This document shows positions 3,848 to 58,500 of a stretch of 64,000 bases of DNA, one piece after another. The notes under the pieces were generated by a model. It saw nothing but the letters and a program-made list of their open reading frames with translations, had not been told where the DNA came from and made no database searches. The translations under genes and the position numbers were made by a program. Origin of the DNA: Candidatus Omnitrophota bacterium (GTDB taxonomy: Bacteria > Omnitrophota > Gorgyraeia > Gygaellales > Profunditerraquicolaceae); the NCBI GenBank assembly GCA_050012075.1, contig JBEKHW010000001.1, positions 4,766-68,765 of the forward strand, read 5' to 3'. The stretch's first letter is position 1; every line of letters begins with the position of its first letter.

Positions 3848-4142
3848 CTATCCACCGTAAATAAGGTTTATGCCCCTCGACAATGGGCAGGCAGATTATT
3901 TCCGGGACTTCATAACTATGCATGGATTTTACTGCCTGGATTATTTTTTTTGCTTTAGAGCGCCTGGACTTTATGATAAGGAGTGATTCAGCTGCCTGTT
4001 CGATCTTGCCTTTCCACCAGAATAATGAATCTACCCTGCCTATAATATTGACGCAGGCAGCCAGTTTCTCTTTTAAGAGCCCCCTGGCTATGCGCCTAGC
4101 CTCGGCCTTGGAAGGAACAGTCACCAGTATAACTGTATACAT
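3831..4142 (-). CDS. cutA: divalent-cation tolerance protein CutA
   Basis: 103 aa. Pattern VTVPS.EEA..IAR.L..EKLAAC.NI...SLFWWKG.I is a CutA1 signature. Confidence 0.8.
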   Translation of the reverse strand: MYTVILVTVPSKAEARRIARGLLKEKLAACVNIIGRVDSLFWWKGKIEQAAESLLIIKSRRSKAKKIIQAVKSMHSYEVPEIICLPIVEGHKPYLRWIDESIR

Positions 4143-4644: not shown

Positions 4645-4949
4645 TGACTTACGAACACGCCAGTGTGAGTAAGTCAATGTGCGAATTGAACCCCACACCC
4701 AGCTTTATTTTAAAGATCCTACTAATCTTAATTTTAAAGCCGTAAGAGCTTGTGCATAGTGTTTGAGACGCCGCTCTCTGTTTCTTGCATCTGACTCGGA
4801 TTTATAGGCCTCATAATAAATTAGTTCGTGCGGTTGTATTTTAAGGTGCTCTTTTAAGCGCCGCTCTAAGTTATTGGTATAACCATAATATAGTTTGTCT
4901 GTTTCCGTGTTTTTTATAACGTATAAATAATGCATAGCTGGGTGTGGGG
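4645..4949. mobile_element. composite hairpin element copy 1 carrying a GIY-YIG gene. Layout: hairpin A (4645-4677), conserved linker TGTGCGAATTGAACC (4678-4690), 13-bp IR-L CCCCACACCCAGC (4691-4703), gene, IR-R GCTGGGTGTGGGG (4937-4949)
   Basis: Perfect 13-bp inverted repeat flanks the ORF exactly: stop 1 bp after IR-L, ATG 2 bp before IR-R. Gene-less copies with the same hairpin A plus linker are at 37863-37960 and 44577-44635. Confidence 0.45.
4705..4935 (-). CDS. GIY-YIG nuclease family protein (YhbQ/UPF0213-like, 76 aa)
   Basis: YVIKNTETDKLYYGYTNNLERRLKEH carries GIY...YYG plus the catalytic R and E. Start set at ATG 4933-4935 so the domain starts at residue 3 as in YhbQ; the ORF track starts 22 codons earlier. 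Confidence 0.7.
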   Translation of the reverse strand: MHYLYVIKNTETDKLYYGYTNNLERRLKEHLKIQPHELIYYEAYKSESDARNRERRLKHYAQALTALKLRLVGSLK

Positions 4950-5934: not shown

Positions 5935-6145
5935 CGGTTTCTATTATTTTATCCCTTGATTTGAGGCCCGCTACTATCCTGAGCTGGTATTTTTTTAACC
6001 CCAGGTGTCGAGCGAGAAGCCTGATAAGCTGCTCATTCGCTAAACCCTCCTGTGCCGGTTTAGTCAAATATGCCTTGAGAATGCCGTTTTCCTCTTTGAT
6101 TAAATTGCGGCTTGAGCGGGGAACGACCCTTACCTTAAGAAACAT
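5927..6145 (-). CDS. DUF167 (YggU) family protein
   Basis: 72 aa with LKVRVVPRSSRN...G.LKA.L...P..G.AN..L...L signature of UPF0235/YggU. Confidence 0.65.
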   Translation of the reverse strand: MFLKVRVVPRSSRNLIKEENGILKAYLTKPAQEGLANEQLIRLLARHLGLKKYQLRIVAGLKSRDKIIETDV

Positions 6146-6148
6146 GGG

Positions 6149-7081
6149 CTATTTTGATTCTATGCGTTTAGTTTCCTGGATATCGGTAAGCCGGTCTGAA
6201 AACCTGTCTAATTTTTTCTGGCTATCCGCGTATTTACTTGAGGCATTGGATATATGGGAACCCAGCGTATCAAAATCTTCTTTAAATTTATTGATATCGA
6301 TATGCAGCGCGCTTAAATTCTTCAGGATATTTTTGGCGTTCTCTTCTATTTTAAGCCCCTTTAACCCGAGGCAGATCACCTGTAAATAGGCATAGAAGGT
6401 GTTAGGCGAAACCGGGATGACTTTCTTAGCCATGGAATAAGAGAATAGGTCTTCCTTGATGATCACCTCGTAATATACGTTTTCCGCCGGCACATACATA
6501 AGGGCGAAATCATAGGTATTTTCATCGGGCAGGATATATTTGGCGGCAATCTCATCCACGCGGTTTTTTACATCCTGGATAAATTTCCTGCGGAAGCCGC
6601 TTTTGGCCTGCTCATCAGTGGCCTCGAGCATCTTCTGAAAATTCTCTAAGCTGAACTTGGCATCCACAGGCACAAGGCGTTCGCCTAAGCGGATTACCGC
6701 GTCCACCGCGTCGGAAGATTTAAAGCGGTATTGCATAGTGAAATGCCCCTGGGGTAGGACCTGGGCCAGTAAATTCTCAAGGAGTGTTTCTCCCATTGAC
6801 CCCCTGAATTTAGGGGCGCGCAGTAATTCCTGTAAACTGGAGATATCCTTGCTGATTTCAACTATCTGCTTATTGGTCTCCTCAAGTTTTCCCAGCTGCT
6901 TTTCCACGTTGCCGAATACATTTGTGGCGTTCCCCAGGTTCTGGCCGATGATTTTATTGGCCTCCTGGATAGTGCGTTCCATAGAGCCCAAGCGCTCATT
7001 GACCTGCGAGGAAATCTTAAGGACAATGGCGACGAGGAAAACACCCAATATCAGGAATATTATCGAACCAATCCAAATCAT
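6149..7081 (-). CDS. rmuC: DNA recombination protein RmuC
   Basis: N-terminal TM helix, long coiled coil, then the conserved RmuC C-terminal region (VPVDAKF...MYVPAE..Y). Confidence 0.8.
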   Translation of the reverse strand: MIWIGSIIFLILGVFLVAIVLKISSQVNERLGSMERTIQEANKIIGQNLGNATNVFGNVEKQLGKLEETNKQIVEISKDISSLQELLRAPKFRGSMGETLLENLLAQVLPQGHFTMQYRFKSSDAVDAVIRLGERLVPVDAKFSLENFQKMLEATDEQAKSGFRRKFIQDVKNRVDEIAAKYILPDENTYDFALMYVPAENVYYEVIIKEDLFSYSMAKKVIPVSPNTFYAYLQVICLGLKGLKIEENAKNILKNLSALHIDINKFKEDFDTLGSHISNASSKYADSQKKLDRFSDRLTDIQETKRIESK

Positions 7082-7142
7082 TTTTAACCCCTCAATTACT
7101 AATTACTATTTACTAAACAATTATACCACTTTACCCGTATTC

Positions 7143-7865
7143 TTAAAGCAAATACTCCTGTTTAATTCTTTTGGTGCCCCTAAAGATATTGGTCCTTACG
7201 TCGGGGCACATCTTTTCCAGTTCATTGATAATGGCTGACATTTTTGTGCGCTGTGATGCGAGGGAATTAGGGCAGGCGCATTTATGGTGCGGGAAATCCG
7301 CGGTTTTGGCGAATTTTACGATTAAACTTTCCTCTACATAAGCCAGGGGCCTGATAATTACGACCTTACCTTTAAAAAGCTCCTGTTTTGGAACCATAGA
7401 GGAAATCTCGCCGTGAAAAAATAAATTCATAAGCGTGGTTTCTATAATATCGTCCTTATGGTGTCCGAAAGCAACCTTAGTGCACCCAAAACGCTGCGCC
7501 GTCTCAAAGAGCGCCTTCCTCCTGTTCCAGGAGCACCAGAAACAGGAGATATCTTTACGCGTCTGGCCCGGCTTTAAAAGCTGCACCTTCTCAATATGAT
7601 AATCTATCCCGTGCTTCTTAAAATACTCCGATAAAATCTTCGGATGGTGACAGGGATAACCCATATCAATATGCACTGCCAAGAGGTCATATTTTATCGG
7701 CACAAACTTCCTGCGGTCATTCAATACCCGTAACAGCGTCAGGCTGTCTTTCCCGCCTGAGACAGCGACAAGGATTTTATCGCCATCAACTATCATCCCG
7801 TAATCTATGATAGCCTTGCCTACCCGCTTTGAAATATAAAACTCATGTCCCTGTATGACTGACAT
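7143..7865 (-). CDS. ttcA: tRNA 2-thiocytidine synthase TtcA-like PP-loop ATPase
   Basis: PP-loop SGGKDS. Paired CxxC clusters (CFWCSW, HKCACP) typical of the TtcA Fe-S family. Confidence 0.7.
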   Translation of the reverse strand: MSVIQGHEFYISKRVGKAIIDYGMIVDGDKILVAVSGGKDSLTLLRVLNDRRKFVPIKYDLLAVHIDMGYPCHHPKILSEYFKKHGIDYHIEKVQLLKPGQTRKDISCFWCSWNRRKALFETAQRFGCTKVAFGHHKDDIIETTLMNLFFHGEISSMVPKQELFKGKVVIIRPLAYVEESLIVKFAKTADFPHHKCACPNSLASQRTKMSAIINELEKMCPDVRTNIFRGTKRIKQEYLL

Positions 7866-8222
7866 CTAACCTTCTGACCTTCGTTTGATAAATTCATCTA
7901 ATTTGTCGAGTGATTTTGCATCGGGGTCAGAAAATCTAATCCTTATTTCATAAATAAAATCTTTGGCAAGTTCCCGGCATTCAAGAACTACTCCCGTCAT
8001 CGTTATATCAACTCCATGGGTAAAAGGCCCTCTTATGATGAATTCCATATTCGCCCCTTCCTTAAAAGGCTTTTCCACTGTAAGCAACATACCGCCCCTG
8101 CTGATATTTTTGGTGCGGGTGAGGTTATAATTTTCTGACGTACCTTTAACTTTATAGTAAACAAAATAACCTTCTGCTAATCTTTGATATTTTCTCCGCT
8201 CTGAACTTTCAAAGTCATGCAT
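7866..8222 (-). CDS. PilZ domain protein (c-di-GMP receptor-like)
   Basis: RRKYQRL...(D/N)ISRGGM matches the PilZ RxxxR...D/NxSxxG motif. Confidence 0.65.
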   Translation of the reverse strand: MHDFESSERRKYQRLAEGYFVYYKVKGTSENYNLTRTKNISRGGMLLTVEKPFKEGANMEFIIRGPFTHGVDITMTGVVLECRELAKDFIYEIRIRFSDPDAKSLDKLDEFIKRRSEG

Positions 8223-8303
8223 CCCTGTCTCCTAGCCCACAAGGGCACGCCGGCGCATCCGATAGCGCCGGGCGTTAGCCCAATAATTATACCATACTCT
8301 CTT

Positions 8304-8384
8304 AGCGGGTGGCTGCCGAGACGAAGGCCTTGCCGCGCGCAACGCAGTGAGCACGGCGAGGTGGCTCGGCAGACAGGACCCGCT
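8304..8384. repeat. structured ~81-bp repeat, short form U1 (AGCGGGTGGCTGCCGAG...CTCGGCAGACAGGACCCGCT long hairpin)
   Basis: About 90% identical to 8716-8797. Its termini match the ends of the ~200-bp elements at 14494-14690 and 46737-46931. Lies between the promoter-like hairpin and the PilZ start codon, i.e. in the 5' leader. Confidence 0.6.
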
Positions 8385-8437
8385 AACTAATTATACCGCC
8401 CGAAATAAAAAATACCAGGCACATTTTCCGCGCCTGG

Positions 8438-8683
8438 TTATCTTCTGGTTATCTGGAGATTTACTGTAATTGATATCATAAAAGAGATAAAAAGCACGAA
8501 TATATAAAAAATAAATAATTGCACTAAGAAATCTTTGGCTGTTATTTTCTTTACACCGGGTAAAAGTTTTATATAGGCATTCCCGATCAAAGTCCACACT
8601 ATTGTTCCAAATAGACAAAAAATAAACAGTATTATAGCTAATATTAAACGCTTTGATAAAAATGCCATTTGCTTAACAGGCAC
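8438..8683 (-). CDS. small membrane protein (81 aa, 2 TM)
   Basis: Hydrophobic ORF bracketed by the U1 and U2 repeats. Confidence 0.4.
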   Translation of the reverse strand: MPVKQMAFLSKRLILAIILFIFCLFGTIVWTLIGNAYIKLLPGVKKITAKDFLVQLFIFYIFVLFISFMISITVNLQITRR

Positions 8684-8715
8684 CGGAGATTACCTTATAA
8701 CTGCCTAACTCTCTT

Positions 8716-8797
8716 AGCGGGTGGCTGCGGAGCCGAGGCCCCTGCCGCGCGCAACGCCAGTGAGCACGGCGGGGTGGCGCAGCAGACAAGACCCGCG
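8716..8797. repeat. structured ~82-bp repeat, short form U2
   Basis: Near-identical copy of 8304-8384, with compensatory changes in the stem (CCGAG/CTCGG becomes CGGAG/... GCGCAG). Confidence 0.6.
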
Positions 8798-8895
8798 AAT
8801 TAATTATACCACCCAAAATAAGAAAACCCAGGCACATTTTCCGTGCCTGGGCTCCTCTCGCCCCCTGCCCTATGGGAACGTCTCCGTATTTTCTT

Positions 8896-9375
8896 TTATA
8901 GTGGATCCTGCGCCTTATTCAAAATCGAATCAATCTCCCGAGTATCATTTCGAGCCCGCTCCTCTTCCCGCGCCTGCTTATGGAGCTGCTGTAGTTGCCA
9001 TTCTCCTTGCTGCCGCACTTGCTTATGGAACTGCTGTATTTGCCATTCTTCTTCCTGCCGCGCCTGCTTTAAGTTTGCCTTTGGATTTTCTTTTTGTTTC
9101 GCTTCAGATTGTCCTTCTCTTAACGGGAGCTGTTCTTGTCGTATATGAACCTGGGGTTTAATCTGTGGCGGAAATATTACCAAAACGGCGATAATTAAGA
9201 TACCGATAATTAAACCATATATTAAATCTTTTTTAATACTGCGGCTTATAGGTAATACCAATGGCCTATGGCAATAATCGCACACTACCGCGGTATCCAA
9301 AACCATTCTTGCACAATAAGGACATTTTTTCACCGCTTGCTTCGGGTAAACAACTCTTAATGGTTTTTTATCCAT
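8896..9375 (-). CDS. zinc-ribbon/TM protein with Gln-rich imperfect repeats
   Basis: N-terminal CPYC...CDYC zinc ribbon, one TM helix, then repeated EEEWQIQQFHKQVRQQGEWQLQQLHKQ. The DNA carries ~45-bp tandem repeats at 8950-9060. Confidence 0.45.
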   Translation of the reverse strand: MDKKPLRVVYPKQAVKKCPYCARMVLDTAVVCDYCHRPLVLPISRSIKKDLIYGLIIGILIIAVLVIFPPQIKPQVHIRQEQLPLREGQSEAKQKENPKANLKQARQEEEWQIQQFHKQVRQQGEWQLQQLHKQAREEERARNDTREIDSILNKAQDPL

Positions 9376-9398
9376 AGTATTCTGTGTGCATTATGAGG

Positions 9399-9440
9399 TG
9401 CTATTTATCTAAAGGGTGGTACCCCGGGGAACGTTCCCTT
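9399..9440. repeat. short form of the intergenic module: CATAG-loop terminator remnant plus GGGAACGTTCCC palindrome
   Basis: TGCTATTTATCTAAAGGGTGGTACCCCGGGGAACGTTCCC is shared with 10140-10165, 11125-11150 and 13125-13160. Confidence 0.55.
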
Positions 9441-9457
9441 ATCCCCGTCTTATATCT

Positions 9458-9796
9458 TTAGCCTTGGCTTTGCATTTTGACTGTTATTGCTTTTATAAAT
9501 TTTATCCCTAGGCTACTAATTGTACTACCAACTATAACAATAAACAGCATAAACAAATAATATAAAAATACATTTACAATCTTTCTTAATTCTGGATCTA
9601 ATGTAATCTTTATTAGTGTAGGCTGACTAGCTGCATCAGAGGATGCTGAAAGGCTTAAACTCTGCATCTGAAATAGTTCAGGTGGGTTGGCTGTATTTGT
9701 AAAGACATTACACATAGAATAGAATGCAAACAATATGCAGATTAGTCCTATACAAAACATAACATAACCGAATATCTTTTCTGTATCTGAACTCAT
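9458..9796 (-). CDS. small membrane protein (112 aa)
   Basis: Start set at ATG 9794-9796 preceded by GGAAGGAGG. Two TM helices. Confidence 0.45.
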   Translation of the reverse strand: MSSDTEKIFGYVMFCIGLICILFAFYSMCNVFTNTANPPELFQMQSLSLSASSDAASQPTLIKITLDPELRKIVNVFLYYLFMLFIVIVGSTISSLGIKFIKAITVKMQSQG

Positions 9797-9914
9797 TTCT
9801 ACCTCCTTCCAACAAAAAAGCAACCCTGTATATCTGATAAGCGCTACCCCGCCACTGCAAATATTAGATATAATTATATCTTGGATAATCGATCAATTCA
9901 AGATAATCAGATAC

Positions 9915-10165
9915 TGCCCAAAATAAAGGATCCCAAGCCTTTTCCGCGCCTGGGATTAAAATTAAAGCAGCCACTGGCGTATTGCTTTAATTTTACGCCG
10001 AGCTCTGCGAGGCGAAATTAAAACAGCCACTCGATTTAGCCGTGCCTTTGGCGTTTACGGCTAAATCGCCCTTCGCTCTGCGAAGGGGGTTGCTTATGCC
10101 AAAATCACACCGAGCTATGCTCGGTGCTATTTACCTAAAGGGTGGCACCTTCGGGAACGTCCCTA
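9915..10165. repeat. intergenic module A (~250 bp): promoter/terminator hairpin, CGCCGAGCTCTGCGAGGCG, GGCTAAATCGCCCTTCGCTCTGCGAAGGGGG, CACCGAGCTATGCTCGGTG, GGGAACGTCCC
   Basis: Long blocks more than 90% identical to 12086-12345, and partly to 10856-11150, 13054-13185 and 38280-38400. Confidence 0.6.
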
Positions 10166-14493: not shown

Positions 14494-14690
14494 AACGGGT
14501 GGCTGCGGAGCTGAAGTCATTCGCGGGTGACGAGGCATGTTTTGAGCAGGGCGTAACGCAGGCCGAACGGGCACGGTTCACCCGCTATAAAAAAGTCAGT
14601 GAGAGTGAGGCCGAGTAGCCGAGCGTGATTTTCCACGCTGGGGAAAATCACGCGGCCCTGCGAGAAATATGCCTCGGCAGGACCCGCGAC
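14494..14690. repeat. structured ~197-bp repeat, long form L1 (inverted relative to 46737-46931)
   Basis: AACGGGTGGCTGCGGAG...CCTCGGCAGGACCCGCGACC termini. Internal perfect 11-bp stem CGTGATTTTCC/GGAAAATCACG. Reverse complement aligns over its whole length with 46737-46931. Confidence 0.65.
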
Positions 14691-18216: not shown

Positions 18217-19722
18217 CTAAAAGCTTTCTATTTTATTCAGGGCATTTACATAGGCCCTGACCGATGATTCAATGATATCCGTGCTTGAGCCGCGCGCTGT
18301 GACCACCTTGCCCTTGGCTTTTAGTTTAAGACTTACTTCGCCGAGGGCGTCTTTTCCTTTGGTTACCGCTTCAATGCGGTAATCCTGCAGCTCGCACTTT
18401 GTGCCGGTGATTTTATCAATCGCCTTAAAACAGGCATCTACCGGCCCGTCTCCGGAAGATTTAGCCGACTGCAGTTTATTCTTGTATTTTAGATGTACGA
18501 CTGCTACAGGCGTAATCTTGGTACCGGAATTAATCTCGAAACTTTCCAGCTTCCAGACCGGTTTTACTACCTTGATTTCATCTTCTACTATGGAAATCAG
18601 GTCATCGTCAAAAATATTTTTCTTTTTATCGGCCAGCTCCTTAAAACGCCCGCTGACTTTCTCAAGCTGCTCGGTGTTCAGGATAAACCCGAGTTCCTTT
18701 AACCGCTCTCCTAAGGCGTGCCTACCCGAATGTTTGCCCAGAACAAGGCCTGTCCCCACAAAACCCACATCTTCCGGCTTTATGATTTCATAGGTAGAGC
18801 GCTCTTTCAGGACCCCATCCTGATGAATACCGGATTCATGACGAAAGGCATTTCCGCCTACGATTGCCTTGTTAGGAGCAACTACAAAACCCGTGAGTTT
18901 GCTGACCAGGCGCGATACTTTATATATCTGGTTGGTAGTTATATTTGTCTGTAGGCCTTTAAATATATCCTGGCGCGTCCTGATATTCATTACAATCTCT
19001 TCCATAGAGGCATTGCCGGCTCTTTCGCCGAGACCGTTAATGGTGCATTCTACCTGGCGCGCGCCGCTTCTGATTGCTTCCAGCGAATTCGCAACAGCCA
19101 TACCCAGGTCATTATGGCAGTGGGTGGAAATTACTGCCTTACCTATATTAGGGACGTTTTCCTTAATCCCGCGGATAAGGATTCCATATTCTTCCGGCTG
19201 GGTATAACCCACTGTATCGGGGATATTGATTGTGGTTGCACCCTCATTAATCACCGCTTCTATTATCCTGTACAAAAATTCCCTTTCGCTGCGGGTAGCG
19301 TCTTCTGGAGAAAATTCCACGTCGCCACAGGATTTCCTGGCATATCTTACGCTCTCAATTGCGAGGCGCATTATTTCATCCTCTGCTTTTTTGAGCTTAT
19401 ACTGCATATGGATTTTTGAAGTAGCAAGAAACACGTGTATGCGGCCGCGTTTCGCGAATTTTACACCTTCGGCTGCCGCGTCAATATCCGCTCTAATCGC
19501 GCGAGCAAGCCCGCAGATAACCGGGCCTTTAACAGCTTTGGCAATCTGTTTTACTGATTCCAAGTCTCCTGGGCTTGAAATAGGAAACCCTGCCTCAATC
19601 ACATCCACGCCCAATTCTGCCAGGGCATGGGCAATCTCCATCTTTTCAGCAGGATTGAGGCTCGCCCCCGGCGCCTGCTCCCCGTCTCTTAGTGTCGTAT
19701 CGAATATTATTATTTTATCCAT
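18217..19722 (-). CDS. leuA: 2-isopropylmalate synthase
   Basis: IFDTTLRDGEQAPG N-terminal signature, HCHNDLGMAVAN motif, and C-terminal LeuA dimerisation domain. Confidence 0.9.
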   Translation of the reverse strand: MDKIIIFDTTLRDGEQAPGASLNPAEKMEIAHALAELGVDVIEAGFPISSPGDLESVKQIAKAVKGPVICGLARAIRADIDAAAEGVKFAKRGRIHVFLATSKIHMQYKLKKAEDEIMRLAIESVRYARKSCGDVEFSPEDATRSEREFLYRIIEAVINEGATTINIPDTVGYTQPEEYGILIRGIKENVPNIGKAVISTHCHNDLGMAVANSLEAIRSGARQVECTINGLGERAGNASMEEIVMNIRTRQDIFKGLQTNITTNQIYKVSRLVSKLTGFVVAPNKAIVGGNAFRHESGIHQDGVLKERSTYEIIKPEDVGFVGTGLVLGKHSGRHALGERLKELGFILNTEQLEKVSGRFKELADKKKNIFDDDLISIVEDEIKVVKPVWKLESFEINSGTKITPVAVVHLKYKNKLQSAKSSGDGPVDACFKAIDKITGTKCELQDYRIEAVTKGKDALGEVSLKLKAKGKVVTARGSSTDIIESSVRAYVNALNKIESF

Positions 19723-19725
19723 CTT

Positions 19726-19787
19726 AGTTCATGGTTCATGGTTCATGGTTGATAGTACTATGAACTATCCACTATGAACTATGAACT
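19726..19787. repeat. heptamer hairpin R1: (GTTCATG)x3, loop, (ATGAACT)x3. Abuts the leuA ATG and is followed by TTTTTT on the + strand
   Basis: AGTTCATGGTTCATGGTTCATGG ... CTATGAACTATCCACTATGAACTATGAACT. Same family at 23265-23338, 25002-25063 and 39517-39599. Confidence 0.65.
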
Positions 19788-19826
19788 ATTTTTTCATCCA
19801 TTGTTACTTCTTCGTTGAAGGCATTA

Positions 19827-19882
19827 CTTTTCGGCAAGCCACTGGCGTTTTTGCCGAAAAGTACACCGAGCCATGCTCGGTG
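19827..19882 (-). terminator. tandem hairpins 3' of ilvC, including the CATAG-loop hairpin CACCGAGCCATGCTCGGTG
   Basis: Two GC-rich stems (CTTTTCGGCAAGCC..GGCGTTTTTGCCGAAAAG and CACCGAGCCATGCTCGGTG) immediately downstream of the ilvC stop. Confidence 0.5.
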
Positions 19883-19899: not shown

Positions 19900-20895
19900 T
19901 TACGATTTTTTCATCCAGGGCATCATCTCTCGTAGCTCTCTCCCCACCTTCTCAATCAGATGATTATCCCCGTCAGCTAACAACTTATTGAAATTCGGCC
20001 TGCCTACTTCATTTTCCTTAATCCACTCGCGGGCAAACTTTCCTGATTTTATCTCCTTCAGCATTTTCTTCATTTCCTTGCGGGTCCTTTCCGTGATAAT
20101 ACGCGGGCCGCGGGAAAGGTCTCCGTAGCAGGCGGTATTAGAAACACCCCTGCGCATACCTGATATGCCTCTTTCCTGGATTAAATCAGTGATGAGTTTT
20201 AACTCATGCAGCACTTCAAAATAAGCTATCTCGGGCTGATACCTGGCTTCAATCAAAGTATCAAATCCGGCGGTAATCAATGCAGTCACCCCGCCGCAAA
20301 GCACTGCCTGCTCGCCGAAAAGGTCGGTTTCGGTCTCTTCTTCAAAAGTGGTCTCGATAACTCCGGCAGTGGTTGCCTTAATCCCCTTAGCGTAAGCGAG
20401 CGCTAACTGCTTTGCCTGGCCGCTTGCATCCTGATAAACCGCAATTAAAGAAGGCACGCCTTTTCCTTCTTCATACATACGCCTTACCAACGCGCCCGGG
20501 CCCTTTGGTGCTACCATAAACACATCCACATTCTTGGGCGGCTTTATCTGCTTAAAACGGATATTAAACCCGTGCGAAAAACAGAGGGCTTTTCCTTTTT
20601 TAAGATATGGCTTTATATTCTCCTTATAAACCTTTGCCTGGACATGGTCCTGGGTAAGAATCTGGATGATATCCGCTCCTTTTGCCGCCTCGGTAACGGT
20701 TACCGGGGTAAAACCATCCTTTTTTGCCTGTTCAAAATTCGGAGTTCCTTCCAATTCAGAAACTATAACCCGTAAGCCCGAATCCCTGAGGCATAATGAC
20801 TGGCCACGGCCCTGTATGCCGTATCCGATAATAGCGATTGTCTTATCTTTTAAATATGATAAATCCGCGTCCTTGTCGTAATAAATCTTTGCCAT
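19900..20895 (-). CDS. ilvC: ketol-acid reductoisomerase
   Basis: Rossmann GYGIQGRGQ and the KARI C-terminal knotted domain. Start at MAKIYYDKD (ATG 20893-20895) behind AAGGGGAGGAA. Confidence 0.9.
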
Positions 20896-21585: not shown

Positions 21586-23250
21586 TTACGCGAGGTTACT
21601 AATCATCTGGTTTATCGCTTCTCCGGCGGGAACCATCGGGAAAACATTCTCCTCCGGCTCAACGCGGAAATCGATAAACACGGTATTATCTATCTTGATC
21701 GCCTTTTCAATAGCGGGCCGCACTTCCTCTTTTTTTGTGACGTGTATGCCGACTGCGCCATAGCTATCCGCAAGCTTCACATAATCGGGGCCGGTTATGC
21801 AGACATGCGAATAGCGCCTCTTGTAAAAAAGCTCCTGCCACTGCCGCACCATCCCGAGATATCCGTTGTTAAGGATTGCTACTTTAACGTTTATTTTATT
21901 GCAAACGCAGGTGGCTAATTCCTGTATATTCATCTGTATTGAGCCGTCCCCTGCTATATCAAAAACTATTTTATCCGGGCAGCCGACTTTAGCGCCCATT
22001 GCCGCCGGAAAACCAAACCCCATTGTGCCTAATCCGCCTGATGAAATAAAGGTGCGCGGTTTAGTATATTTATACCACTGGGCAGCCCACATCTGGTTTT
22101 GCCCGACCTCTGTCGTGATAATCGCCTCACCCTTTGTGGCTTCGTCAATCTGCTCGATAACATACTGCGGCTTGATCATTTCGCCTTCTTTATAAGCCAG
22201 GGGATGTTTTTTCTTCCATTCATCCACCATCGTAAGCCAGACGGTAGTATCCGGGATTTCTTTTATCTCTCCGAGCAGTTCCCCTAAAACATTCTTGGCG
22301 TCTCCCACAATGGGTATATCAACCCTCACGTTCTTGCTGATTGAGGAAGGGTCAATATCTATATGGACGACTTTTGCGTAAGGCGCAAAGGCGTCAAGCC
22401 TGCCGGTTACGCGGTCATCAAAACGCGCGCCTATGGCAAGGATAAGGTCTGAACTCATAATCGCATGGTTAGCATAACCTGTCCCGTGCATACCAAGCAT
22501 CCCTAACGCAAGCGGGTGTGTCGCCGGAAAACCGCCTATACCCATTAGCGTCCAGGTTACCGGGGCATTTATCTTCTCTGCCAGCGCCCTTAATTCCTTG
22601 CTGCAGCCGGAAGTTATGATACCGCCACCTATGTAGAGCACCGGTTTCTTTGCCTGGGCAATTAATTTGGCTGTTTTCTTGATCTGCCCGGGATGGCCGA
22701 AAAATGTGGGCTTGTAACTGCGGATATCCACTTTTTCCGGCCAGACAAAATCCGTATCCTTTAATTGCACATCAGACGGGATATCTATAAGCACAGGTCC
22801 AGGCCTACCTGTCGAGGCAATATAAAATGCCTCGCGCACAACCCTAGCCAGCTCACTTACGTCTTTGACAAGGTAATTATGCTTGGTTATGGGACGAGTG
22901 ATTCCGGTAACATCTGCTTCCTGAAAAGCATCATTGCCGATTAAGAAACTTTTTACCTGCCCTGTAATGGCAACCATCGGTATTGAATCCATATAGGCAT
23001 TGGCTATGCCGGTAGTCAGATTCGTAGCACCAGGGCCTGAAGTAGCAAGACAAACCCCTACCTTTCCGGTTGCGCGAGCATATCCGTCGGCAGCATGGGC
23101 TGCGCCCTGTTCATGCCTCACAAGGATAAACTTTAAATCAGAATCATAAAGCTTATCGAATATGGGCAGCACCTGTCCGCCCGGATAGCCGAATATGACT
23201 TCCACGCCTTCGCGTTTTAAGGACTCTATTAATATCTGTGCGCCTGTCAT
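21586..23250 (-). CDS. ilvB: acetolactate synthase large subunit
   Basis: ThDP-binding GDG...N motif and FAD-domain motifs. 554 aa. Confidence 0.9.
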   Translation of the reverse strand: MTGAQILIESLKREGVEVIFGYPGGQVLPIFDKLYDSDLKFILVRHEQGAAHAADGYARATGKVGVCLATSGPGATNLTTGIANAYMDSIPMVAITGQVKSFLIGNDAFQEADVTGITRPITKHNYLVKDVSELARVVREAFYIASTGRPGPVLIDIPSDVQLKDTDFVWPEKVDIRSYKPTFFGHPGQIKKTAKLIAQAKKPVLYIGGGIITSGCSKELRALAEKINAPVTWTLMGIGGFPATHPLALGMLGMHGTGYANHAIMSSDLILAIGARFDDRVTGRLDAFAPYAKVVHIDIDPSSISKNVRVDIPIVGDAKNVLGELLGEIKEIPDTTVWLTMVDEWKKKHPLAYKEGEMIKPQYVIEQIDEATKGEAIITTEVGQNQMWAAQWYKYTKPRTFISSGGLGTMGFGFPAAMGAKVGCPDKIVFDIAGDGSIQMNIQELATCVCNKINVKVAILNNGYLGMVRQWQELFYKRRYSHVCITGPDYVKLADSYGAVGIHVTKKEEVRPAIEKAIKIDNTVFIDFRVEPEENVFPMVPAGEAINQMISNLA

Positions 23251-23264
23251 GTTTTTTAGTTATT

Positions 23265-23338
23265 GGTTCATGGTTCATTGTTCATGGTGTAAAGCTCTAA
23301 ACCATGAACTATCCACTATGAACTATGAACTAAGTATA
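23265..23338. repeat. heptamer hairpin R2 (GTTCATG family) between ilvD and ilvB; contains the ilvD stop codon
   Basis: GGTTCATGGTTCATTGTTCATGG...CCATGAACTATCCACTATGAACTATGAACTAAGT. The ilvD TAG stop is the CTA at 23323-23325 in the right arm. Confidence 0.65.
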
Positions 23339-24978: not shown

Positions 24979-25001
24979 ATGCTTCTCCCTTCGGTCGAAG
25001 T

Positions 25002-25063
25002 AGTTCATTGTTCATGGTTCATAGTTGTCCTACTATGAACCATCCACTATGAACTATGAACTA
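25002..25063. repeat. heptamer hairpin R3 (GTTCATG family) between the aldolase-like gene and ilvD; contains the upstream stop codon
   Basis: AGTTCATTGTTCATGGTTCATAG..CTATGAACCATCCACTATGAACTATGAACTAATC. The stop of the 25061 gene is the CTA at 25061-25063. Confidence 0.65.
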
Positions 25064-26386
25064 ATCTGCGCCTTCTCCGTCGTGCACAACTTCTTTACCT
25101 TCTTTACGTTTACGCACAATAACGCGCTTGAGAAGAATATTCTTATCAATGAGGTCACGGTTATTGATATTGCTTAGCTGCTTAAACAGGAAATCAAATT
25201 TATTTTCTATTTCGGCGGCAATCGCCTCCCGCACCTCTTTCGATAAACCCATGATTTCTTTCTTAAAAGGACCTAACGCTTTTTTGCGCGCCTTATACAA
25301 AAACTGGTCTTCGGTTTCCCCTTCTTTTTTCTCGGAAGCGGCGTTTACCTTAAGCCATTCATAGATCCTGTTTTTTAGGTCTGCAGGAAAATGCTTACTC
25401 TCATAAATCATATTCTGGAACTCTGTAGCCAGGTGCACCTCTGCGCAGTCGCATTCCGCGAATTTATGGAATGCCTCTGCGGGCAAGGTAGAAGCGCCAT
25501 GCTGTACCGCGCCTGAAAGCCCGTATTCCTTACGCGCGATCTCCGAAAGTGCCTTTAGAGTATTAAAATCCAGCTTAACCTGGGCGATGGAACCGTCAGG
25601 AAGGACGACCCCGCCGTGCGAAGTGCCTGTCTGCACGGAAATTTTACTTATGCCGATTAACCCTTTCCTTAATCTTTCTTTGTATCCGGCCATAAAAGCA
25701 CGCAGCTCTTCGGCAGTAGAATTCGCGTGGCCTACTTCACCTATTTCTCCTCCTACGGAAACCGTTACCCCGCGCGGCTCGACACGCCTGATAAACTGTG
25801 TAAGTTTTGCGCAGGCCTCATAATTATTCCTTTGTTGCTTTTTTACGTCGGGTTTGGATAAATCCACGAGCGTAGAAGAATCAATATCAATATTGTAAAA
25901 CCCGGCTGAAATCGCATCCGCAATCAAATCCTGCAATCCTTGCAGTTCTTTCTCCGGATTCTCCTGATACTTCTTGGCATTGACCTGGGTGTGGTCTGCC
26001 TGGATAAAAACAGGGCCCTGCCAATCTTCTTTTATCGCGGCTGCCAATATAACCGCAGAGTATTCAATAGGCGGCTGGGCAGTATAACCCATCTCTGATT
26101 TTGCAATCTCAAAGATAAATGCGCCGGAATTATTACGCTTGGCAACCTTAAAGAGAGCGCGCGCAAGGTCATAGGTCATACTTCTTAAATTGATTGCCGG
26201 GACTGTAAAGCCGCTGAATTCTCCCCTGCCGCGCGCCATATAAAAATCATGAATACTGGAAGGATAAATACCTTTTTTATAAGCTATCTCGCTTATCTTC
26301 TTGGCCAGCTTTTTCTTAAGCGGCATATCGTCACTCATTATCAGCTCAAAAACAATCTTCTCGATGTCCAAAGGATTCCTTCCCAT
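25061..26386 (-). CDS. class II (metal-dependent) fructose/tagatose-bisphosphate aldolase family protein, long form
   Basis: About 440 aa with IQADHT and GTSHGG boxes, which resemble the class II aldolase DH and GxxHG metal/phosphate motifs. Sits next to pfkA. Family assignment is tentative. Confidence 0.5.
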   Translation of the reverse strand: MGRNPLDIEKIVFELIMSDDMPLKKKLAKKISEIAYKKGIYPSSIHDFYMARGRGEFSGFTVPAINLRSMTYDLARALFKVAKRNNSGAFIFEIAKSEMGYTAQPPIEYSAVILAAAIKEDWQGPVFIQADHTQVNAKKYQENPEKELQGLQDLIADAISAGFYNIDIDSSTLVDLSKPDVKKQQRNNYEACAKLTQFIRRVEPRGVTVSVGGEIGEVGHANSTAEELRAFMAGYKERLRKGLIGISKISVQTGTSHGGVVLPDGSIAQVKLDFNTLKALSEIARKEYGLSGAVQHGASTLPAEAFHKFAECDCAEVHLATEFQNMIYESKHFPADLKNRIYEWLKVNAASEKKEGETEDQFLYKARKKALGPFKKEIMGLSKEVREAIAAEIENKFDFLFKQLSNINNRDLIDKNILLKRVIVRKRKEGKEVVHDGEGAD

Positions 26387-27377: not shown

Positions 27378-27450
27378 AGGGACGGTTCTCAACTCAAAGC
27401 TAGAACTGTCCCCCTTTTAGGGACACTTCTCCGATTAAATTGAGAACCGT
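27378..27450 (-). promoter_or_regulatory. nested palindrome in the pfkA 5' leader / 3' of the upstream operon: GGGACGGTTCTCAA..(44 nt with inner GAACTGTCCCC/GGGGACACTTC hairpin)..TTGAGAACCGTCCC
   Basis: 14-bp perfect inverted repeat, plus an inner 10-bp imperfect hairpin, ending 2 nt before the pfkA RBS. Confidence 0.45.
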
Positions 27451-27460
27451 CCCTAATTCG

Positions 27461-39452: not shown

Positions 39453-39516
39453 TAATTTTTCGATTCCGGACTCTATCCTGCGGCTATTGATTCAACAGGA
39501 TTAGAGGCCCAGATTT

Positions 39517-39599
39517 AGTTCATTGTTCATGGTTCATGGTTCATGGTTCATGGTTCATGGTTGTCCTGCTATGAACCATCCACTATGAACTATGAACTA
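39517..39599. repeat. heptamer hairpin R4 (GTTCATG family, six left-arm units) overlapping the frr stop codon
   Basis: AGTTCATTGTTCATGG(TTCATGG)x4..loop..CTATGAACCATCCACTATGAACTATGAACTAA. The frr TAG is the CTA at 39597-39599. Confidence 0.65.
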
Positions 39600-40157
39600 A
39601 AATTCAAGTATTTCTTTTTCTTTATTCTTTAAGAGCTCGTCAATCTTTGCGATATACTTATCGACAAGCTTTTGCAATTCATCTATCCCGCGAAACTTAT
39701 CGTCTTCTGAAATTGCCTTGTCTTTCTCAAGTTTCTCTAATGTTTCTTTGGAATCGCGCCGGATGGTGCGTAAAGACACCCTTCCTTCTTCCGTCATATT
39801 GTGCACCACTTTTGCCAACTCCTGGCGCCTCTCTTTTGAAAGCTGCGGGAATGACAATCGCACAACCTTGCCATCATTGGAAGGTGTAATGCCAAGATTA
39901 GATTTAAGGATAGCCTTCTCAATCTCGGGAACAGCCGAAACATCCCATGGTTGAATCATCAACAAGTGGGCATCCTGGGTAGAAATAGAGGCCAACTGTT
40001 TTAACAGGGTCGGGGCCCCATAATAATCAATATGCAGTCCTTCAACCAGATGAGGGCTTGCCCTTCCTGTGCGTATCTCGGAAAATTCACGGGTAACCGA
40101 ATCAAATGCCTTTTTCATTTTCTCTTCGGAGCTATGTAAGATTTCCTTAACTGTCAT
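39597..40157 (-). CDS. frr: ribosome recycling factor
   Basis: 186 aa. Conserved RTGRA and PQLSKERR regions. Confidence 0.9.
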   Translation of the reverse strand: MTVKEILHSSEEKMKKAFDSVTREFSEIRTGRASPHLVEGLHIDYYGAPTLLKQLASISTQDAHLLMIQPWDVSAVPEIEKAILKSNLGITPSNDGKVVRLSFPQLSKERRQELAKVVHNMTEEGRVSLRTIRRDSKETLEKLEKDKAISEDDKFRGIDELQKLVDKYIAKIDELLKNKEKEILEF

Positions 40158-46736: not shown

Positions 46737-46931
46737 TCGCGGGTCCTGCCGAGGCGCGTTCTCGCAGGAACGCACGATTTTCCCCAGCGTGGAAAATCGC
46801 GCTCGGCTCCTCGGCCTCGCTCGTCCAATACAAGATTGTTTCGGGGACACCTTGCCCGCTCGGCCTGCGGACGTCCTGCTCAAATCGCGCCTCGTCACCC
46901 GCGAATGATTTCGGCTTAGCAGCCACCCGCT
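46737..46931. repeat. structured ~195-bp repeat, long form L2 (reverse-complement copy of 14494-14690)
   Basis: Starts 5 bp after the lpxB stop. Termini TCGCGGGTCCTGCCGAGG...GCAGCCACCCGCT. Confidence 0.65.
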
Positions 46932-55500: not shown

Positions 55501-58500
55501 GATTTTTTTCTGCGTTTTAACTACCCGCTCATAAGGCATTACTACATCAACCAAGAGTGTTGAGACGACATCCTTTCCGTCGTGGCGATGCTGGAAATTG
55601 GCATGCTGGTCGCGTGTGCCTATGCCGTAATCTATATCCTGCAAAAATTCACCAAGGATATCTGCTTCTGGGCTCGCAGTGTAAAAGACCGAACTTAAGA
55701 CTTTATCCCTGTCCTTGGCAATCAGCTTAAGCGCAGCTATCTCTTCTGCCGCCTTCTCAATCTGGAAATCCGACATATTTTTCCCGAAACCGCTTATCTT
55801 CTGGTATAGGGTGTATATCTGTTTATCCACATCTTCAATGCGCCTCTGAAGCTGTAATCTTTCGCCTGCTCTCTTCAGTTCTACCGATAGATCCGCGATC
55901 TTGTCTTTAAGGCCTTTTATCTTTTTCAATGTATCCAAGAACTCCACTTCACTTACCTCTACGGTTCCGCCCTTGGCTAATTCAGCTTCGGCAAGTTTTT
56001 GCCGTGCCCAGGCAATTTCTAAGCGCGCCTTACCCAATAGCTTAACCTTTGAATCCTTATCCAAGCTTTTGCTTCCGGTCTCATCGGCTATATTTATTTC
56101 ATCATAGTCAATATATTTTTCTTGTCGAATACGCTCTTCAGCTTTCTGGTATCTGGCTTTGATCGCCTCATCCGACTTATCCAGCGCATTCAAAATAGTG
56201 ACTAGGACTCCCTTAGCCAGTTCAACCATCGGCTGGTTCTGCGGGTCCCTTAGCCACCAGAAATTCGGCTTACCGTCTAGAACAGGTTTGTTCATTAAAG
56301 AAGCGCCTACTTTTGGTATGGTTAGCTCAAGATTATTCTCTTTAGCCATATCCGCTAAGCTAAGAAGCCCGTAACGCACGGTAAACTCCTGGAACCAGAG
56401 GGCAAACTTGGCATTGGCAAGAGGGGATATTTCTTCCTTGAAATAACGGATTACAGGCACGCCTTCCGGTACTGCCATCGGCGCCATTCCTGCCTGGTCT
56501 ACTACAACTACCAACGGCTCTGTGCCAGTCTGTAACTTTATCTGCTCTACTTTTCTTTTAAGCTCTTCTTCACCTATGCTGGTCACAACCCATATCCCCT
56601 GTCCGTCTTTACCATTGCTCTCGGGGAACAACTGCTCTTTTTGCAATGCCTCTGAACGGGCATTGGAGCCGCGCACCGCAACTATCATAAATGAAGGGTC
56701 AAGGTAATACGCCAGTGTCGCTGCGCGTAAGGCGCTGTTTTTCTTAGGGTCGTTCCCGGCTTTACCAAGGTATTTTTTCGCCTGTTCCTGCAAAGCATCG
56801 CGGTCTACAGCTACGCCCTGGAAGACCTGGGTAATATCACCGGTCTCGCAGTTCTCGGTAAACCTGCCTCCGGTAAATTCCGAGAAATCAACTGCCGCGA
56901 TATCAGCGATATTCAATTCTTTCATGCCAAGGACAAATGCGTAGAGCCGGCTTGCCGCGGCATTCCTGGAGGTGCTGAAGATTATCCTGTCAAAAACTGC
57001 AGAGATGACGGACTGCTCTTGCGCATTAAACAGCTTGTTGAACTCCGCCTTGGACATGCCTTTAAAAAGCTGGTCCTTTTGTTTCCCCTTGTTAAAGTCC
57101 TTGAGAAATTTGTTCCATTTATTGACCATGGCTATGGCGCCCTCATTGTCCATGCCTTTTTCTATTGCCATAAGCCGCAGGAATTCATTTATTGCTTCCT
57201 GATATAAACTGAGGGGTTCATCAGTCCCGCCTGATTTAGAGCTTACATGCAGGACTATCTGGGTTATCTTGTAACCCTGACGAAGGAGGTCTTGGAATAA
57301 TTCGCTTACGCTTCTACCAAGCCTGTCCAGGACAATAACATTGGCGTCGCTATCTGTCCCCCAATACTCTACCTCTACGCTATTAGACATCCCCTGTCCG
57401 CCGATACCGAAATGGATCATCAGCCTGGCACCATCTGCTTTCTTTTGCTTAGTCCAAGTCACTATAAACTGATGATTATCTACCCGCAATGCGCCACTGG
57501 CGTCTTTATAACCAAAGCGGGAATTCAACTGGCCGGTCGGTTCCGGATACATTGCTTCTTCTCCGCTTGCTTCATAATCAGCTGCCAATTGTAGGCGGCC
57601 GTTAACAACAGAAGCAAGGTCTTCAAAATTAAACCATTCCCGAGGCCCTTCAAAAGATATTGCGGCATCCGAAAAACGCTGGAATTGCGTTGCAGGAGAA
57701 GAGGCTTTTTCATATTTAGCGTGGACTTTTGTTGCGATCTGGTTAATAGCCACTACAAGCTCACCGCTTCTGTTCTCAGGATGAGCTTTCGTCTCTTCCA
57801 GCTGTTTAATAAATAACGGATTCTGGGCTCTTAGCGCGTTAACAATTTCTCTTCTTTCCTGCACGACACGAAGTAATTCTTTATCTAATTCCGCATCACG
57901 GTTAGAAGACAACAAATTTACATCCAGATATATCTGCGCTCTACCCAAACTATAGTGGGTTCTCTGGCCCTTGATGAATATTAAAGTAAAATCCCGCCAA
58001 AATATCTGGTCATCAAGCTTCGTTATCCTGGAAATGGCTGCTTTTACAGTCTCAAGCTGTTCCTCATTAAGCCGTATCTTTTGTTGTTCAACCGATACCG
58101 TAGCTGTAAAGCCAAGTGGTTCCCCTTCAAAAACAATAGAATCTTGAACAACTCCCCAGTTGTGTTCTTTTGGCACCCCAATACGCCTGGTAAAAGGAAG
58201 ACTTACTCTAGCAGCGGCAAATTCGCCTCTTTGAATGGCCAGGCTTATCTCCTTATTATAATCCTCATTTAGCAATACCCAGTCCGTTGCTTCTGCCGGG
58301 GAAGAAGCTCTTACATATCTATCATGGACTTCTGTTGCAACTTCGTTAATAGCTTTTCTAAGCTGGGAGCTTCTTCTTTCAGGATGGGCTTTTGTGTTTT
58401 CCAGCTCTCCGATAAATGCCGGATTCAGGGCTTTTAGCTTGGCGCGGATTACTTCTCTTTGCGCCACTGCATTATTTATTTGCCTATTTAACTCTATTTC

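Follow-up and report, generated by a model that had tools for sequence, protein, structure and literature searches.

We analyzed a stretch of 64,000 nucleotides from the genome of a Candidatus Omnitrophota bacterium (contig JBEKHW010000001.1, positions 4,766 to 68,765; hereafter, the window), in which four structured hairpin elements are found next to protein-coding genes. Their neighbors code for a PilZ protein, a PP-loop ATPase, an 81-aa open reading frame (ORF) without a Pfam match, a SEC-C protein, 4-alpha-glucanotransferase, LpxB and an M48 peptidase. The four elements belong to an uncatalogued interspersed family of modular hairpins whose fold is selected on one strand, the one that includes the sequence GCGGGUG, and this family is not tied to the function or the orientation of the adjacent genes. 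The two short copies, S1 and S2, are different subtypes of a low-copy S family, and each of the two 197-nt elements combines a member of a sister family, L, with an orphan half of an S element. The features in the window are listed below; scores are those obtained with the covariance model (CM) R1.

8303..8384, + strand: S1, S-type hairpin, CM R1 93.8 bits, E 3e-20, aligned in alignment A2
8385..8438, - strand: flank module by S1, with the terminator of the 81-aa gene (8438-8414) followed by GGGCGGTATAAT with TATAAT at 8395-8390
8715..8797, + strand: S2, S-type hairpin of the GGAG/CGCA subtype, CM R1 89.9 bits
8798..8855, - strand: flank module by S2, with a terminator at 8855-8823 and TATAAT at 8808-8803
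14494..14521, + strand: orphan S 5′ half (5′ strand of the handle, 5′ strand of P2, GAAG) fused upstream of L1
14522..14688, + strand: L1, L-type, with handle, tandem-GA helix UUUYGAGC/GCGAGAAA and multi-hairpin interior, included in alignments A4/A5
46738..46903, - strand: L2, L-type, in the convergent spacer between lpxB and the M48-peptidase gene, 81% identical to L1
46904..46931, - strand: orphan S 5′ half fused upstream of L2

The initial annotation of this DNA had described the short copies as a direct repeat of about 80 nt, about 90% identical, each able to form a long hairpin. Two direct copies do exist, but global alignment gave 86.6% identity across the hairpin, and the copies lie within a longer repeat. 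Since the unit that aligns, 8296-8437 with 8708-8850, extends over 142 nt at 87.4% identity and the hairpin is only a part of it, the repeated unit exceeds the hairpin. A repeat search recovered this unit in two pieces separated by a single indel (8296-8345/8708-8757 at 90% and 8345-8437/8758-8850 at 87%). The unit also includes a minus-strand intrinsic terminator and a TATAAT box, and this flank module, the terminator plus GGGCGGTATAAT, is outside the conserved S family; the repeat search of the window found it without a hairpin at 9897, 10844, 12074 and 13054. The predicted hairpins were confirmed by folding. S1 has a free energy of -51.1 kcal/mol (z -5.7 with respect to shuffled controls), with a stem that is prolonged to 8302-8386 (UUAG...CUAA), and S2 has a free energy of -45.6 kcal/mol (z -2.3). 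Only one of the differences between the copies, a change from U-A to C-G in P3, is compensatory, as had been proposed for some of them; the remaining differences define the S2 subtype, which recurs in other genomes, e.g., at L130, L141 and L208 (three-digit L numbers designate loci outside the window). The pattern CGGGTGGCTGCNGAG is present in the window only at the four S and L copies, three times exactly and once with one mismatch. Matches resembling the 3′ handle at 20080 and 35672 were discarded as chance occurrences within apparent coding sequence. A different GC-rich hairpin, GGGCACGCCGGCGC...GCGCCGGGCGUUAGCCC, is located at 8228-8270 between S1 and the PilZ start codon, and a 30-nt stretch of it is 90% identical to sequences at L127 (541-570) and L140 (1068-1096).

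A scan of metagenome contigs with an apical-core pattern identified at least 119 loci, 62 of which hold complete S hairpins (52 of them distinct), with CM R1 scores of 50-101 bits across the S copies. In the alignment of the 52 sequences (A2), 97.8% of the cells are paired and nine pairs show double changes, which amount to 78 cells. This covariation was reached by none of 500 shuffles, and slid controls paired at 30-44%. In the L family (nine sequences), 16 of the 41 predicted pairs have compensatory changes. There are thus two related families supported by covariation, an S hairpin of about 80 nt and an L element of about 170 nt, which have in common a basal handle, GGGUGRC ... GR′CAGGACCC. 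The covariance-model search that the initial annotation had advised yielded further copies, with compensatory pairs that support the fold. The Rfam scan it had also advised left the four copies unmatched: Rfam 15, at the gathering thresholds and at E ≤ 10, gave nothing relevant for the window, for any of the four copies or for 24 related loci. No description of the S and L elements was found in the literature by topic or by sequence strings. Signal recognition particle RNA, T-box, k-turn, group II domain V and a 16S mimic were considered and rejected on register or sequence, and had no Rfam support.

The S hairpin is built on a P1 stem, GCGGGU/ACCCGC, the outer pairs of which covary (TTAG/CTAA, TTTG/CAAA, CAG/CTG, CCGAG/CGAGG). 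The handle is made up of GGGU/ACCC of P1, a 3-nt AGG bulge and a helix in which 5′-G R C faces 5′-G R′ C AGG. R and R′ form a purine-purine pair that also covaries: A..G is seen in 32 copies and G..A in 14, and 3 copies have some other combination. Above the handle are P2, P2b, an asymmetric loop (ACGRRG/UGG) and P3, which includes a conserved U·G pair. The apex consists of a C·A mismatch, GC/GC, a GCA/GA tandem-GA loop, a 2-bp stem and a loop that is mostly GNRA. The alignment was ascertained through this apex, so the search pattern partly forces the apical invariance seen in A2. In the copies found by the covariance model only, C·A and GCA/GA are kept and the neighboring pairs change in a compensatory manner. 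The apex pairs AC/GU become GU/AC in L155b, those of L105b are CC/GG and GC/GC with a UCGA loop, and L203 has GC/GC with the tetraloop replaced by a 29-nt hairpin insert. In L223, a hairpin is inserted into the AGG bulge.

A further element of about 130 nt with several hairpins is found in metagenome contigs of 30-36% GC, sometimes twice per kb (L102, L113, L120 twice, L149, L162, L167, L169 twice, L174, L179, L183, L184 and L215). It has no match in Rfam, and only the apical core CCG-CGCGCAAC-GNRA-GUGAGCA-CGG is common to it and the S family, which hints at a shared recognition module.

Identity between the long elements, 14494-14690 (+) and 46737-46931 (-), is 81%; as described initially, the two are inverted relative to each other and carry an internal hairpin, GATTTTCC/GGAAAATC. 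The copy said to lie directly after the lpxB stop is in fact there, with L2 beginning 5 nt past the stop codon. The folds of L1 and L2 have free energies of -94.3 kcal/mol (z -5.0) and -98.9 kcal/mol (z -4.6), respectively. In both folds the 3′ end, GCCUCGGCAGGACCCGCG, pairs with an internal sequence, CGCGGGUGACGAGGC, and not with the 5′ terminus; the conserved long element begins at 14522 or 46903, and its own basal stem pairs with the 3′ end. Homologues of these elements (L141, L200, L106, L111, L133, L108 and L203) begin at this internal point and are devoid of the first 28-30 nt; the copy at L141 (10008-10175) is 94.6% identical to L1. Because the homologues do not have this segment, and because the segment at 14494-14521 is 78.6% identical to the 5′ half of S1, sequence comparison identifies the long copies in the window as complete L elements to which an orphan S 5′ half is fused. 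Within this genome the chimera has been duplicated as a whole, and L138 likewise has an orphan S half ahead of a complete element. The terminal similarity between short and long elements noted earlier is therefore a true relationship, but it consists in a basal handle module common to both and, in the long copies of this genome, an added orphan S half.

L elements have the conserved tandem-GA helix, UUUYGAGC/GCGAGAAA, usually together with an S-type handle. The interiors that sit on the shared handle differ: an S apex, an L multi-hairpin domain, a tiny hairpin, or a full S nested in an L scaffold; mini-L and L112-type interiors are found on it as well. A full S is nested inside an L-type scaffold in L127, L200, L158 and L137, and partial L-type scaffolds surround an S in L202, L175, L108 and L112. 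Head-to-head pairs (S+L or S+S′), 15-60 nt apart, are present at six loci (L105, L106, L111, L133, L200 and L203).

The two strands of the elements are not equivalent. Within A2 the GCGGGUG strand has 52 G·U cells versus 5 A·C cells, and one position carries U·G in 32 of the 52 sequences. The same strand is more stable than its antisense by 2-18 kcal/mol, the antisense values being -46.8 for S1, -43.8 for S2, -80.0 for L1 and -80.9 for L2. The excess of G·U, the conserved U·G pair and the better folding indicate that selection acts on one folded strand, GCGGGUG, either as RNA or as single-stranded DNA (ssDNA). For S1, S2 and L1 this is the + strand, and all their flanking genes are on the minus strand.

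The genes around the family do not form a coherent functional set. They include tmk, lysA, dprA, a PP-loop ATPase, PHP, miaB-like and polX-like genes, 5S rRNA, tRNA, PilZ, malQ and lpxB. The arrangement cysS-S-tmk is found in about nine contigs (L101, L132, L137, L140, L155b, L168, L185, L202 and L223), where the first bases of the stem are often the cysS stop TAG and the tmk ATG is about 12 nt beyond; argH-S-lysA is found in three to four (L035, L070 and L190) and aroK-S-dprA in L130. One copy is located about 100 nt past a 5S rRNA gene (L108) and another about 40 nt after a tRNA (L187). With respect to the flanking genes, 16 copies are co-oriented, about 10 antisense, 4 convergent and 5 divergent, so the proposal that orientation is not fixed holds across the whole family. 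In the median, copies are closer to a gene 3′ end than to a 5′ end, and many of them occupy tight operon junctions, with the next start codon 1-20 nt away. The mixed orientation and the proximity to gene 3′ ends exclude the logic of a riboswitch or leader. The initial opinion that this is not a classical riboswitch was thus correct, since there is no Rfam match, the orientation is free and the neighbor genes are unrelated. A lysine riboswitch was considered for the element upstream of lysA in L035 and L070, and it was dropped in view of the cysS-tmk, aroK-dprA and antisense contexts. Upstream of the copies there was no conserved -10/-35 at a fixed distance, as promoters of independent small RNAs would show.

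Copy number appears low, with 4 copies per 64 kb in the window and 0 in about 140 kb of unselected flanks. An exact 5′ pattern was scanned against 185,579 species genomes, one genome per species, and gave 83 matches of which 2 were real, although this pattern is too strict for the commoner GGGTGAC subtype. Both real matches (L035 and L070) are in Candidatus Omnitrophota metagenome-assembled genomes, one match each, in sense orientation and filling the argH-lysA spacer. Among 2.9 M viral contigs there were 0 apical-core matches, and the 5′-end pattern gave 15 chance matches, none with the 3′ end. Taxonomy was taken from source protein names and best matches. The Tmk homologues beside the junctions are named Candidatus Omnitrophota by NCBI. 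The S doublet of L105 is in a contig of 66% GC, whose dihydroorotase is nearest to Thermoanaerobaculia (Acidobacteriota) proteins, with about 70% identity for the named matches; based on this proximity, the S family crosses phyla, being found in Omnitrophota and in one or more lineages of Acidobacteriota-like type. The same three sequence blocks are kept in both phyla over a range of 39-66% GC. The copies are about 70% GC within genomes of about 42% GC.

The cysS-tmk junctions were also viewed independently of the element search, by means of Tmk homologues. In L223, a complete S occupies the junction. L224 and L225 have a mini-L of 68 nt there, composed of the handle, the tandem-GA helix and a tiny hairpin; in L220 and L221 the spacer is 23 nt long and resembles both ends of a deleted element; and L222 has a 3.9-kb insertion (6109-10000). 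The junction may be an integration hot spot. The L222 insertion contains a fragment of an IS110-type transposase (Transposase_20), a DUF1016/YhcG gene, a holin-like gene and a patatin gene. Interior exchange at these sites, nested copies and truncated halves are how a family of recombining repeats behaves. Target-site duplications were not found: the flanks are reverse-complementary, extending the stem, and are not direct repeats, and because they are complementary there is no duplication of the type left by a miniature inverted-repeat transposable element (MITE). The element termini pair and yet covary between copies. Nothing resembling a parent insertion sequence (IS) was seen in about 900 kb of loci, and there was no integrase among the called genes of the cysS-tmk-type loci. 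A tblastn search with an IS200 TnpA query gave no match.

Y1 transposases similar to those associated with repetitive extragenic palindromes (REP), the REP-associated tyrosine transposases (RAYT), are common in Omnitrophota and were considered as candidates for mobilizing S and L. All four of the Y1_Tnp genes examined in this phylum (L223 and L226-L228) are flanked by a different hairpin, GGGACGGTTCT...AGAACCGTCCC; the CM R1 found no S copy in L226-L228, and there was no S or L within 4 kb of three of the Y1 transposases. RAYT was rejected as the mobilizer because these transposases adjoin another repeat. The (A)GGGACGGTTCT...AGAACCGTCCC(T) hairpin is present at 27378-27454 of the window, at 20079-20135 of L223 and at about 3885-3940 of L226, and GGGACGGTTCT hairpins are found in L227 and L228 around 3900-3930 and 4680-4710 as well as in about 10 other loci. 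This hairpin is probably the true REP/RAYT system of Omnitrophota.

What the S and L elements do is a matter of interpretation. Our first choice, which we hold tentatively, is that they act as folded single-stranded RNA punctuation at gene ends, read by a putative conserved factor. Read-through transcripts would carry very stable, sequence-specific hairpins at gene ends and intercistronic junctions, where these could serve as a barrier to 3′ exonucleases or as a processing site. The putative factor would read the unpaired nucleotides of the handle and of the tandem-GA motif, and recombination through the handle that they have in common may copy elements from site to site or swap them. Several facts weigh against this view. 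The RNA nature is deduced only from wobble pairs and energies, with which a folded DNA strand is equally compatible. About 40% of the copies in tandem gene contexts are antisense, including S1, S2 and L1, and a role as RNA there would need antisense or read-through transcription. A plain stabilizer hairpin has no need of invariant loops and bulges, part of the apical invariance in A2 is owed to the search pattern, and the partner protein is putative only. The cysS-tmk site is variously occupied by an S, another S subtype, a mini-L, a remnant of about 20 nt or the 3.9-kb insertion, and both orphan halves and nested elements are frequent; a DNA repeat that is selfish and recombines fits this variability just as well.

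Such a repeat would be an ssDNA hairpin comparable to REP, to bacterial interspersed mosaic elements (BIME) or to REP doublets forming hairpins (REPIN), with a putative HUH or tyrosine enzyme that recognizes the handle and any effect at the RNA level being incidental. We regard it as the main rival, a serious one, with less confidence than RNA punctuation. It accounts for the random orientation, the many antisense placements and the head-to-head doublets at six loci, as well as for the nested copies, the orphan halves cut at the same point and the presence, absence or replacement of the element at the cysS-tmk site. The chimeric unit of S half and L duplicated in the window and the islands of about 70% GC in genomes of about 42% GC are also in its favor. 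G·T wobbles and bulges, like those of the selected strand, are also used by ssDNA enzymes, among them IS608 TnpA, RAYT and IntI acting on attC. On the other hand, the RAYT-like transposases of the phylum are flanked by the GGGACGGTTCT hairpin instead, target-site duplication was not seen, the copy number appears low, the same three blocks are conserved across two phyla at 39-66% GC, and the 2.9 M viral contigs held 0 copies.

Our expectation is lower still for a further reading, in which S and L may constitute a new functional RNA class. The handle, with its AGG bulge and covarying G·A pair, and the tandem-GA motifs would then be what a phylum-spanning RNA-processing or RNA-binding machinery recognizes, or else would make up a new self-cleaving ribozyme fold; such an RNA would punctuate polycistronic transcripts in Omnitrophota and some Acidobacteriota, with interiors that can be exchanged or nested. 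That the elements are specific functional RNAs in a narrower sense, whether as a new self-cleaving ribozyme, as a small RNA that binds protein or as a processing signal, is modeled on the fold and seems unlikely. By analogy with the hinged hairpin ribozyme, and with the same low expectation, the asymmetric middle loop might bend the hairpin so that the handle loop docks on the apical tandem-GA/C·A. Consistent with such models, invariant unpaired nucleotides are confined to two separate loops joined by covarying helices of near-constant length, insertions are tolerated only at the tetraloop and the AGG bulge, and the fold includes tandem G·A motifs together with a GNRA-like loop. Bacterial self-cleaving ribozymes are reportedly multi-copy, in varied contexts and clustered, and the same is true of the S and L elements. 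The inference is, however, purely structural; the handle is found on very different interiors (L, mini-L, L112 type), which argues against a single docked active site; and many copies, lying antisense between genes of one direction, would not be transcribed.

The initial annotation had favored a MITE- or SINE-like (short interspersed nuclear element) repeat that may have been co-opted as leaders. Under co-option, the minus-strand hairpins at the 5′ ends of the PilZ and 81-aa mRNAs would mediate 5′-end stabilization or translational control. On the minus strand, each copy is indeed preceded at 4-6 nt by a TATAAT box (8395-8390 and 8808-8803), the genes are positioned as described and the antisense strands still fold well (-46.8 and -43.8 kcal/mol). 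Nevertheless, we consider leader co-option very improbable. Since the GCGGGUG strand is opposite to both genes, their leaders could carry only the antisense copy, and a scan of the window called no promoter at the two proposed sites. A transcript from these TATAAT boxes would begin within the stem, and a second minus-strand TATAAT (8291-8286) lies between S1 and the PilZ ATG. The family is not associated with PilZ or any gene class, and in L213 the S is in sense orientation upstream of a PP-loop gene homologous to the one in the window, where S1 lies antisense upstream of PilZ and the PP-loop gene. A role of S1 and S2 as leaders of the PilZ and 81-aa genes was thus not supported. A classical MITE, derived from an IS element and with terminal inverted repeats (TIR) and target-site duplication, is likewise very improbable and already largely refuted: despite the inverted termini, the short and long forms and the several copies per 64 kb, the outer flanks covary as base pairs rather than being direct repeats, the termini vary and the internal loops are invariant, which is the reverse of the MITE pattern, no linked transposase, parent IS or viral-contig match was seen, and the corresponding sites of related genomes hold other members, a remnant or an insertion. 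We give just as little credit to intrinsic (bidirectional) transcription terminators, for although the hairpins are very stable and near gene 3′ ends, even after rRNA and tRNA genes, the listed 3′ flanks have no U-tract in either orientation (A/T runs only lengthen the stem), the terminator scan of the window called beside S1 and S2 only the neighboring canonical hairpins at 8438-8414 and 8855-8823, many copies are 1-20 nt from the next start codon in operon junctions, and conserved loops would be superfluous.

With more than 50 distinct representatives, non-canonical invariants, a cross-phylum distribution and no Rfam entry, the family is a candidate for RNA-motif curation and wet-lab tests. 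Omnitrophota is an uncultured and poorly understood phylum. If the elements are signals for RNA processing or stability, they show how its long operons are punctuated; if they are selfish ssDNA repeats, they point to an unrecognized mobilizing enzyme distinct from the coexisting RAYT system. In annotation, GC-rich hairpins of this kind should not be labeled as the riboswitch or leader of the adjacent gene.

Other repeats are present in the window. Between 8300 and 13200, small minus-strand genes (81-216 aa, several membrane-like) are separated by mosaic spacers, which contain the terminator plus GGGCGGTATAAT module at 8379, 8792, 9897, 10844, 12074 and 13054 and are also built of other GC-rich hairpin families (D2, D5, D6, D8 and D10); further copies are at 19857, 20935, 38270 and 48623. 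Arrays of the heptamer GTTCATG followed by the inverted complement (CTATGAAC) are found at 19708-19789, 23247-23333, 25001-25064 and 39506-39600, one of them about 70 nt from a tRNA gene. The region 57729-59361 consists of about three tandem copies of a unit of about 603 bp with 66-81% identity (D3, D7 and D9); it probably represents either a coding domain that is repeated or a triplicated gene. Separately, the ENA contig k141_450593 (L001), on which the lpxB of the window is found, breaks off at the equivalent of window coordinate ~40503, and the window must accordingly derive from a different, longer assembly of that organism.

Several known systems resemble the S and L elements in part. The REP, BIME and REPIN elements of Proteobacteria, which are associated with RAYT, are also GC-rich imperfect palindromes that are intergenic, near 3′ ends and in both orientations; they also form head-to-head pairs and mosaics, and some are conserved at orthologous sites. 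REP and BIME are transcribed as stable hairpins and can stabilize the upstream mRNA. However, S and L elements are 80-200 nt long versus 20-40 nt for REP, and have bulges, tandem G·A and invariant loops. They are devoid of the 5′ GTAG, their copy number appears low versus hundreds per genome for REP/BIME, and they are conserved across two phyla. While the cognate RAYT of REP/BIME is flanked by its own repeat, the Omnitrophota RAYT genes flank GGGACGGTTCT and not S or L. Integron attC sites share with S and L a folded single strand, conserved basal boxes, extrahelical bases that mark the strand and a terminal structure of variable length. In contrast, the S and L ends are TTAGCGGG ... CCCGCTAA, without RYYYAAC/GTTRRRY cores or AAC/GTT polarity, the elements are located between housekeeping genes in long operons with no cassette logic, and the S apex is highly conserved.

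The Correia (NEMIS), ERIC, RUP/BOX and MIRU repeats are likewise structured, intergenic and 100-200 nt long. They are co-transcribed with their flanks, BOX is modular, MIRU is found in operon junctions and Correia is processed by RNase III. These repeats are genus-specific and high-copy, and Correia and RUP have TIRs and TA duplications, whereas no duplication was seen for S and L, which cross phyla and show strong compensatory evolution. The orphan non-coding RNA motifs and self-cleaving ribozymes (Weinberg et al. 2010, 2015, 2017; PMC2864571, PMC5737381) also combine a covarying fold and invariant loops with many metagenomic copies in variable contexts; S and L differ in that they match no Rfam 15 family at E ≤ 10, have random orientation and are nested, truncated and exchanged like repeats. 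Finally, the intercistronic RNase III hairpins of phage T7 are, like S and L, related hairpins with internal loops between cistrons, but the T7 sites all sit on the strand that is transcribed and have no need of a conserved apical motif.

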